From an uncultured Candidatus Peribacteria bacterium (lineage in GTDB: Bacteria > Patescibacteriota > Gracilibacteria > UBA1369): DNA of 64,000 nt. The stretch is from positions 845,512-909,511 of the forward strand of contig OZ246407.1 of NCBI GenBank assembly GCA_965231025.1. Direction: 5' to 3'. The notes beneath the pieces are model-generated. The model was not told the DNA's origin, ran no database searches, and saw only the letters and a list, made by a program, of their open reading frames with translations. Position 1 is the first letter of the stretch. The number at the start of each line of letters is the position of its first letter. This document shows positions 56,554 to 57,238 of this stretch, piece after piece. The position numbers and the translations under genes are program-made.

Positions 56554-56627
56554 GTCCCTGCTCCACGTTTGGGGCTTATTGAAAACTCGGCATTCCCCTG
56601 TAGCTCAGTGGTAGAGCAACCGGCTGT

Positions 56628-57136
56628 GAACACAATCTTTCCTCATTATGAAAGATAAAAGATCCTATGCCGACCGTGCTGAATATCTAAAGCAGGCTGT
56701 GGCCAAGAGAAGAAAATCTCTTCGCAAGCAGGCTATAGACCTTAAGGGCGGTCAGTGTCAGCTTTGCGGATATAAACGGTGCACCGACGCACTCGAATTC
56801 CATCACTTTCTCGACGAAAAAAACTTCGGGATATCCCGGAAGGGATACACCAGGAGTTGGGAAAAAGTGAAACAGGAACTCGATATATGTGTCTTATTAT
56901 GCGCCAATTGTCACCGTGAAGTCGAAAACGGCATAACGCAGCTTCCCCGAGAAATCGGGGTTGAAACTCGTCTGGATAACGGTGAAAGCTAAGGTCTAAG
57001 ACATAGACTAAGCCAATACCGTGGGAACCCCGCTTTGGCGGGGGCACCGTAGAGACTAGATACAGACGCACCTGACCTTTCAACAGAAAGAAGGTGAAGA
57101 TATAGTCCACCCTTTATGGAAACATAGAGATACGTG
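56628..57136 (+). mobile_element. 509-nt group I intron (IC3-like) inserted between anticodon positions 35 and 36
   Basis: The 5' exon ends in U and the intron ends in G. Core blocks GAAAGCTAAGGTCTAAGACATAGACTAAGCCAATACC, GTAGAGACTAGAT and GATATAGTCCA parallel the P4-P6, J8/7 and P7 regions of the cyanobacterial tRNA-Leu and Azoarcus tRNA-Ile introns. Confidence 0.8.
56648..56992 (+). CDS. intron-encoded HNH homing endonuclease
   Basis: CQLCGY..C...LEFHH.......N.........LLCANCHREVENG is an HNH motif with flanking Cys pairs. The 3' end of the ORF runs into ribozyme core sequence. Confidence 0.85.
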   Translation: MKDKRSYADRAEYLKQAVAKRRKSLRKQAIDLKGGQCQLCGYKRCTDALEFHHFLDEKNFGISRKGYTRSWEKVKQELDICVLLCANCHREVENGITQLPREIGVETRLDNGES

Positions 57137-57238
57137 TAACCGGTAGGTCACTGGTTCGAGCCCAGTCGGGGGAGCCATTCTTGAAACTCAGCACATTTGA
57201 GCAATGCCTCAAATGGCTTTTTCAAGTCCAGGACGAGA

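Follow-up and report, generated by a model that had tools for sequence, protein, structure and literature searches.

Can a bacterium decode AAY codons when its only tRNA-Asn gene is interrupted inside the anticodon? The question is raised by a 64,000-nucleotide (nt) stretch of contig OZ246407.1 (positions 845,512–909,511; assembly GCA_965231025.1) from an uncultured Candidatus Peribacteria bacterium. We call this stretch the window and its genome G000; other G and L numbers denote genomes and loci compared with it. Judged from sequence comparison, positions 56594–57177 of the window very probably hold a functional tRNA-Asn(GUU) gene split between U35 and U36 by a compact, IC3-like group I intron, with a gene for an HNH homing endonuclease in the loop of the intron's P1 helix.

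The split gene and its splice junction

The exons of 34 and 41 nt, and the 509-nt intron between anticodon nucleotides 35 and 36, lie exactly where the initial annotation had placed them (Table 1). The joined exons form a regular cloverleaf with the anticodon loop CUGUUAA, are called tRNA-Asn(gtt) by ARAGORN and have U1-A72, C2, C3 and G73, as tRNA-Asn does. Joined at CTGT|TAA, they are identical at 75 of 75 positions to the uninterrupted tRNA-Asn genes of 10 relatives, including two species of the same genus (G001 and G004) with the intron-less gene at the syntenic locus. Because the 2 kb upstream align at 87% identity right up to the tRNA in G001, the locus of that genome is, by synteny, the same site empty of the intron.

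The junction had been called unambiguous on the strength of the 7-nt loop, the U preceding the 5′ splice site and the G ending the intron (omegaG). The junction itself stands; the argument does not, since a second junction, CU|UGUAA, fits as well: it too gives a 7-nt loop, with the 5′ site preceded by U and the intron closing in G, and would produce a tRNA-Thr with anticodon UGU. ARAGORN, when introns are allowed, does detect the split gene but labels it tRNA-Thr(tgt) i(33,509), not tRNA-Asn. The junction is settled as that of tRNA-Asn because of three observations: the position of the wobble pair in P1, the intron-less alleles and the intron end in G028. Between the internal guide sequence GCAGCU and exon GGCUGU the sole U.G wobble falls on U35, whereas at the Thr-type site A would be the partner of the U. 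In G028 the intron ends as ...AAAUG|UAA, and a Thr-type junction would leave A as its last base. Besides, the tRNA body is that of tRNA-Asn, identical to the intron-less Asn genes, and tRNA-Thr(UGU) is already encoded elsewhere in the genome. Splicing to tRNA-Thr(UGU) is hardly credible, and we rejected it. Thr(GGU) and His(GUG), two further ways to read the junction, were ruled out as having neither U(−1) nor omegaG.

The gene is bracketed by a promoter-like site and a terminator-like hairpin, and the block cttggctatagtgtccctgctcc is kept upstream of the intron-less tRNA-Asn in G001 and G004. A minus-strand match to RF02194 (HPnc0260) at 57141–57247 was discarded; with 33 bits against a cut-off of 59, it is merely the antisense of the tRNA T arm.

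Conservation of the ribozyme fold

Sequence blocks that the initial annotation had quoted from the intron (GAAAGCUAAGG, GUAGAGACUAGA and GAUAUAGUCCA) are all present. The Rfam group I intron model, RF00028, matches positions 56881–57129 over the full model (1–253) with 62.8 bits (E 1.4e-13; gathering score 50 bits), and this is the only match to the model in the whole genome.

The fold was tested on an alignment of 11 intron copies of this lineage, drawn from as many species of the family and trimmed of the inner part of the P1 loop. The structure scored was drawn by hand and comprised P1, P2, P3, P4, P5/5a, P6/6a, the P7 pseudoknot, P8 and P9 (one candidate pair of P6, U105-A129, was dropped, as its column varies without pairing). 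Standard pairs fill 93.4% of the cells, compared with 36–44% when partners are slid by 1–3 columns. Changes on both sides are seen in 23 of 55 pairs, and none of 500 shuffles reaches any of the measures. Helices P2, P3, P5a, P6a, P8 and P9 covary, while P1, P4, P6 and P7 are nearly invariant. By this comparative evidence the ribozyme fold is kept under selection.

All six pairs of P1 form in 11 of 11 species; the U.G pair is invariant, and the one pair that varies does so in a single strand (G.U to G-C, seen in G028). Copies of the intron that have no open reading frame (ORF) run from exon GGCUGU through a 10-nt loop directly to GCAGCU. The strands of P7, the guanosine-binding helix that is pseudoknotted with P3, match the RF00028 consensus GACUA/UAGUC. 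Nucleotide omegaG is present in 13 of the 13 tRNA-Asn introns taken from close relatives and in every copy across the phylum with an end that could be placed.

The core is compact. Just 4 nt separate the 5′ strand of P7 from the 3′ strand of P3, with no P7.1/P7.2; P5 is simple, without P5abc; P2.1 is absent; and GAAA loops cap P2 and P9. By contrast, two additional hairpins separate P7 from P3′ at loci L068, L070 and L072. The window's core thus looks IC3-like, or Azoarcus-like, in agreement with the class first proposed for it; its likeness to the Azoarcus sequence, as it stands in the seed alignment published by Williams (2020; bioRxiv 10.1101/2020.01.27.920355), was judged by eye only.

One relative in the family carries what may be a composite intron. 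Locus L002 (G029:C75) has a 287-nt ORF-less tRNA-Asn intron with a different P3–P8 core, yet it shares 93% identity with the window's intron over the 3′ strand of P7, P9 and the 3′ end. It looks like a product of recombination between intron lineages at a shared site.

Dependence of the genome on the split gene

A single contig of 1,492,597 bp makes up the genome, which is rated 100% complete. ARAGORN found 42 tRNAs and a tmRNA but no further tRNA-Asn, and a BLAST search of the whole genome with the joined tRNA-Asn returned only the two exons, with no intact second copy. AAY codons account for 4.64% of the 185,186 codons in long ORFs. The initial annotation had made the dependence of AAY decoding on the intron conditional on such a count; because the split gene is the genome's only tRNA-Asn, AAY decoding, on the gene content, depends on intron removal. 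The cognate asparaginyl-tRNA synthetase (AsnRS) is encoded (asnS, 459.7 bits; cut-off 342.6), as is GatB.

Could the split gene be a decaying pseudogene, with tRNA-Asn supplied in some other way? Default tRNA finders, which see no tRNA-Asn at this gene, might be taken to say so. However, the complete single-contig genome has no other tRNA-Asn and does encode AsnRS; conservation of the exons is 100%, the fold of the ribozyme shows covariation, and hundreds of species share the arrangement (see below), all of which makes decay very improbable.

Two other features of the tRNA set were observed. ARAGORN reports no tRNA-Thr(GGU) in the genome, only Thr(UGU) and Thr(CGU), so that ACY codons would fall to the UGU tRNA. 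Outside the window, at G000:C1:738384–738935, a tRNA-Ile(GAU) gene beside tRNA-Ala(UGC) is broken by a gap of 100 Ns (738593–738692), and its 3′ half is present twice. ARAGORN finds no tRNA-Ile(GAU) because of this gap, which looks like an assembly or scaffolding artefact rather than biology.

The HNH gene and its overlap with the ribozyme

The ORF of 114 codons lies in the 5′ two-thirds of the intron and overlaps the core, both as initially annotated; the overlap amounts to ~55 nt. It occupies the loop of P1 (L1), which measures ~10 nt in ORF-less copies; the ORF is inserted exactly there, in the sense strand, in G000, G002, G024 and G007. Eight residues of the predicted protein (C37, C40, H52, H53, C81, C85, C88 and H89), among them the putative catalytic and zinc-binding positions, are invariant in 35 homologues, and N87 is conserved in at least 90%. 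An AlphaFold2 model (confidence, pLDDT, 74) has a long N-terminal helix and a strand–strand–helix core (strands 49–53 and 81–85, helix 86–94). Some homologues do have precomputed matches to the Pfam HNH family PF01844. A sequence search of the PDB returned a single weak match (6me0, E 0.003), a group II intron maturase that was hit in its HNH domain, and NCBIfam profiles gave only noise.

Codons 1–95 are under strong purifying selection: the proportion of changed nonsynonymous sites (pN) is 0.06–0.16 against 0.49–0.81 for synonymous sites (pS), with Ka/Ks of 0.04–0.11. In codons 96–114 pS is about equal to pN. These last ~19 codons take in the guide sequence and all of P2 to the 5′ strand of P4 before entering P5, and residues 102–114 fall below a pLDDT of 50 in the model. 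The tripeptide T-Q-L, invariant in the HNH family, is encoded by ACG CAG CUU, that is, by the guide sequence itself; the stop codon UAA (56990–56992) sits inside the conserved core motif GAAAGCUAA. In 34 of 34 ORF-bearing copies across the phylum the guide sequence is read through in the same register as x-Q-L/P, and beyond it the tails of homologues end at differing places. Because pS is close to pN, the model is disordered here and the codons coincide with the guide and P2–P5, we conclude that the tail is a read-through into the ribozyme, constrained as RNA and not as a protein domain.

Since the ORF runs through the guide and P2–P5 to its first stop, a ribosome on the tail would be expected to block folding of the ribozyme. 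Translation may be limited by a weak hairpin enclosing the start codon (Table 1). In Parcubacteria-type copies the same position folds far more strongly and with other letters (CUUUUGC/GCAAAAG; −13.8 kcal/mol, z −5.5). Many of these copies (L076, L078, L080–L084, L089 and L090) also have an extended −10-like motif, TGGTATACT/TGGTATAAT, 10–12 nt upstream of the HNH start, which suggests an internal promoter giving a nearly leaderless mRNA; the window's lineage has no −10 motif of this type.

Table 1. Features of the split tRNA-Asn gene and its surroundings (window coordinates)
Feature	Position	Strand	Remarks
Promoter-like site TTGATA-17-TATAGT	56525–56553	+	~40 nt upstream of the tRNA 5′ end; consensus scan, 10/12 matches; putative function
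tRNA-Asn(GUU) exon 1 (34 nt): acceptor 5′ strand, D arm, anticodon stem 5′ strand, loop C32 U33 G34 U35	56594–56627	+	Identical to positions 1–34 of the relatives' uninterrupted tRNA-Asn
Group I intron (509 nt), between anticodon nucleotides 35/36	56628–57136	+	RF00028, 62.8 bits; ends from P1, omegaG and intron-less alleles
Weak hairpin AUCUUUC/GAAAGAU enclosing the ORF start codon	56635–56656	+	Local fold −5.6 kcal/mol, z −2.1
HNH endonuclease ORF (114 aa), sense strand, in P1 loop (L1)	56648–56992	+	CxxC..HH..CxxCH pattern
Internal guide sequence GCAGCU (P1 3′ strand)	56938–56943	+	Pairs with exon GGCUGU, 56622–56627; U.G wobble at 5′ splice site
P2 hairpin CCCCGA-GAAA-UCGGGG	56945–56960	+	6/6 pairs compensatory, 11 species
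P3 5′ strand CGUCUG	56969–56974	+	Partner 57063–57068 (CAGACG); 3/6 pairs compensatory; 100% of cells pair
P4–P5–P6 domain	56980–57048	+	P5a and P6a covary; P4 and P6 invariant
P4	56980–84/57017–21	+	
P5	56988–90/57011–13	+	
P5a	56993–97/57005–09	+	
P6	57023–24/57047–48	+	
P6a	57028–33/57038–43	+	
P7 5′ strand GACUA, after J6/7 GUAGA	57054–57058	+	Partner 57103–57107 (UAGUC); invariant, 11 species
P8 hairpin	57069–57096	+	2/5 proximal pairs compensatory
P9 hairpin CUUUAUG-GAAA-CAUAGAG	57112–57129	+	5/7 pairs compensatory
omegaG, last intron nucleotide	57136	+	
tRNA-Asn exon 2 (41 nt): U36, A37, A38, anticodon stem 3′ strand, variable loop, T arm, acceptor 3′ strand, G73, encoded CCA	57137–57177	+	
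Intrinsic-terminator-like hairpin CAUUUGAG-CAAUGC-CUCAAAUG (57194–57215), then GCUUUUUC	57194–57223	+	

Several observations count against a self-splicing intron with an HNH gene in its P1 loop. On the RNA side, P1 is so nearly invariant that it offers no covariation, and it is at most consistent with the model. The 305-nt P1 loop may slow folding. A P10 helix was looked for between the bases 5′ of the guide (AUAAC) and exon 2 (UAACC), and none was found; probably the anticodon stem aligns the exons in its place. On the protein side, the PF01844 score of the window protein (17.0 bits, E 0.0064) is below the curated cut-off of 21.4, and in a fold search of the PDB the top neighbours were all HNH nucleases (Gme HNH 4H9D, Cap5 and the Cas9 HNH domain), none of them significant (E ≥ 0.2). 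Finally, no obvious Shine–Dalgarno sequence or internal promoter for the ORF was seen in the window's lineage.

Some group I introns need protein help for splicing, and the long P1 loop, the missing P10 and the overlap of the ORF with the core could mean that the present intron no longer splices efficiently alone and relies on the HNH protein as a maturase or on a host RNA chaperone. Yet the core has all the standard helices with strong covariation, and among the 13 species in the family that carry the intron, 9 show the same core without the ORF; because of these nine, the HNH protein is no general splicing requirement. We consider reliance on a helper unlikely and continue to favor an intron that would splice by itself.

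Distribution of the intron and the nuclease

In the family of 36 species, 13 have a split tRNA-Asn gene (4 with the ORF, 9 without) and the rest an intact one; the ORF-less intron of G018, for instance, measures 237 nt. Both states occur within one genus, G000 and G002 having the intron and G001 and G004 the empty syntenic site, with identical exons. Such a patchy distribution at the same site, in forms with and without the ORF, reads as a signature of mobility.

The initial annotation knew of no other tRNA-Asn intron with an HNH gene, and that impression of rarity did not survive wider searches. In an even sample of 401 Patescibacteria species, 58 have an HNH homologue, ~40 of them a close one (about 10% of the sampled species). 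The best loci of this sample are at a tRNA-Asn gene in 29 of 29 cases, 27 of them inside an intron. A scan of 185,579 species genomes found a relative of the HNH protein in 375, labelled Peregrinibacteria/Peribacteria, Gracilibacteria, Falkowbacteria, Parcubacteria, Saccharibacteria and many other groups of the Candidate Phyla Radiation (CPR); 79 of the best 80 loci of the scan are at a tRNA-Asn gene. A large protein collection holds 1,286 clusters of the HNH protein, and four diverse members traced to their contigs were all (4/4) in tRNA-Asn introns.

Three arrangements connect the HNH family with tRNA-Asn: the HNH gene lies within the intron, on its own by an ORF-less intron or on its own by an intact tRNA-Asn gene. 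At L087 (1493–2095, G103) a free-standing HNH gene lies 20–30 nt upstream of a tRNA-Asn with a 210-nt ORF-less intron of the window's core type; at L088 (1500–1892, G148) one likewise precedes, by 20–30 nt, a tRNA-Asn that is uninterrupted and whose anticodon stem differs (GCGCA/UGCGA). Among phages, the closest homologues (58–60% identity) come from Bacillus phages Bastille and Goe5; they are free-standing genes within tRNA arrays, where each adjoins an intact tRNA-Asn. Homologues of the Felix O1 type adjoin other tRNAs. Going by these associations, the most likely target of the HNH protein is the intron-less tRNA-Asn gene near the anticodon region.

The same three arrangements, together with the strong purifying selection on the protein, could be read differently, namely that the nuclease is kept as a defence or exclusion device that destroys incoming uninterrupted tRNA-Asn genes (e.g. 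those in phage tRNA arrays) while the host is immune through its intron. However, at L088 and in the phages the HNH gene stands beside an intact tRNA-Asn, so that an uninterrupted gene is not automatically a target, and a sporadic distribution with identical exons is the expectation of ordinary homing. Defence appears improbable, slightly more so than the need for a splicing helper, and homing remains our preferred explanation.

The HNH gene is linked to more than one ribozyme. Among 103 HNH-linked intron cores, 92 are of the longer kind with two extra, P7.1/P7.2-like hairpins between P7 and P3′, and 11 have the window's compact core; one HNH lineage, in the same register and at the same tRNA-Asn site, thus occurs in at least two ribozyme cores. 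A tentative explanation, which we hold to be possible though doubtful, is that the HNH gene is a cassette with the guide sequence as its 3′ end, so that nuclease and splice-site specificity would move together between cores, while nuclease synthesis and splicing would be mutually exclusive for each RNA molecule.

Related elements were seen at other sites. In one species of the same family (L132, G030:C3:67773–69896), an ORF-less tRNA-Asn intron is accompanied by a free-standing HNH homologue ~13 kb away that has no tRNA close by. In G001, whose tRNA-Asn is intact, a tRNA-Tyr(GUA) gene (L018, 1110–1399) is split at 35/36 (CUGU|AAA) by a 204-nt ORF-less intron with guide GCAGCC and a core 75% identical to that of the window intron. 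A tRNA-Asp(GUC) gene at L003 (G045) is likewise split at 35/36. Because all three anticodon loops begin with CUGU, a single guide sequence could serve tRNA-Asn, tRNA-Tyr and tRNA-Asp.

Seven loci of the same order (L004, L008, L010, L011, L013, L017 and L021) contain split tRNAs to which ARAGORN gives differing labels: Leu(taa), Ser(tga) or Met(cat). All belong to one tRNA(CAU) type, probably split after U33 (‘Ile2.2Ug’ of Williams). Their introns carry a related HNH ORF of 121–136 aa on the antisense strand, with an extra N-terminal CxxC...C...C motif. The 23S rRNA gene of a relative, at L006 (G010:C95), has two group I introns ~70 nt apart (RF00028, 73.0 and 68.5 bits). Introns in rRNA genes are a known habit of CPR bacteria.

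Relation to known introns

The initial annotation had implied that a tRNA-Asn intron would be new; that is not so. Williams (10.1101/2020.01.27.920355) expanded the four classical classes of tRNA introns to 21, and the seed alignment of that work holds Pam37.Asn.4Ug, Mba143.Tyr.4Ug, Wba81.Asp.4Ug and Gba28.Ile2.2Ug. The window intron agrees with Asn.4Ug in host tRNA, in its site after the fourth anticodon-loop base (CUGU/UAA), in U(−1) and in omegaG. Its core differs from that of the catalogued Asn.4Ug seed; that of Mba143.Tyr.4Ug (GAUAACGGUGAAAGCUAA...CAAUACCGUGGGAAC...CCGUAGAGACUA) is of the same lineage. The accessible portion of Williams (2020) makes no mention of HNH or of Patescibacteria. 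The intron class is, then, already catalogued, and the window adds one more member.

A passing remark in PMC8172020 states that some CPR tRNAs have group I introns, and a 2025 preprint by Nakagawa et al. (in the reference list of PMC12641178) deals, by its title, with tRNA introns of Patescibacteria. Our literature search for tRNA-Asn with a group I intron yielded nothing but papers on organelles and a survey of cyanobacterial tRNAs without such an intron. In the accessible literature we did not find the overlap of guide and ORF, the RNA-type constraint on the tail or the presence of one HNH lineage in two core types; Nakagawa et al. may cover them.

The J6/7–P7 block GUAGAGACUA is common to the window intron and the Azoarcus row of Williams' seed alignment. 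Like the classical IC3 introns (Azoarcus tRNA-Ile(CAU), Agrobacterium tRNA-Arg(CCU), cyanobacterial tRNA-Leu(UAA) and tRNA-fMet), the window intron has a compact core in the anticodon loop, a P1 made from anticodon stem and loop bases and GAAA tetraloops on P2 and P9, and does without P5abc and P7.1/7.2. Unlike them, it is inserted at 35/36 rather than at 34/35 or 36/37, in tRNA-Asn, and carries a sense-strand ORF in L1.

An endonuclease gene in a tRNA group I intron has a parallel in Synechocystis PCC 6803, where the tRNA-fMet intron, according to work ascribed to Bonocora and Shub in 2001, reportedly encodes the homing endonuclease I-Ssp6803I, whose target is the uninterrupted tRNA gene at its anticodon region. 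I-Ssp6803I belongs to the PD-(D/E)XK type, whereas the enzyme predicted here is HNH, and tRNA and site differ. Collaborative homing, in which a free-standing endonuclease acts with an ORF-less intron, is said to have been described in 2009 by Zeng, Bonocora and Shub and by Bonocora and Shub. The HNH family resembles it in gene arrangement, being intron-borne, free-standing by an ORF-less intron (L087) and free-standing by an intact gene (L088, Bastille and Goe5).

Proposed pathway

The unit would be transcribed from its own promoter to the terminator. In the precursor, exon GGCUGU would pair with the guide GCAGCU 305 nt downstream, across the ORF-bearing loop, forming P1 with the U35.G wobble. 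The P3–P9 core would bind free guanosine in P7, and the guanosine would attack after U35. Subsequently omegaG would replace the guanosine, and exon ligation would restore the loop CUGUUAA. RNase P and 3′ trimming would finish the tRNA, to be charged by the AsnRS of the genome. The HNH protein, for its part, may cut or nick intron-less tRNA-Asn genes near the anticodon region, with repair copying the intron in (homing).

Implications

The window itself is no discovery, its class being already catalogued; the arrangement does have consequences for annotation. With default finders missing the gene and ARAGORN, with introns allowed, calling it Thr, a complete CPR genome would seem to be without tRNA-Asn, and inferences on the tRNA set or the genetic code of such genomes can go wrong. 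In the family, alleles with no intron, with an ORF-less intron and with an ORF-bearing one share identical exons and form a natural series; along with free-standing copies of the nuclease, this series suits the study of how homing endonucleases and introns become associated. For the organism, with its 1.5-Mb genome, a ribozyme would underlie the supply of an essential single-copy tRNA; across the phylum, elements of this kind are frequent.

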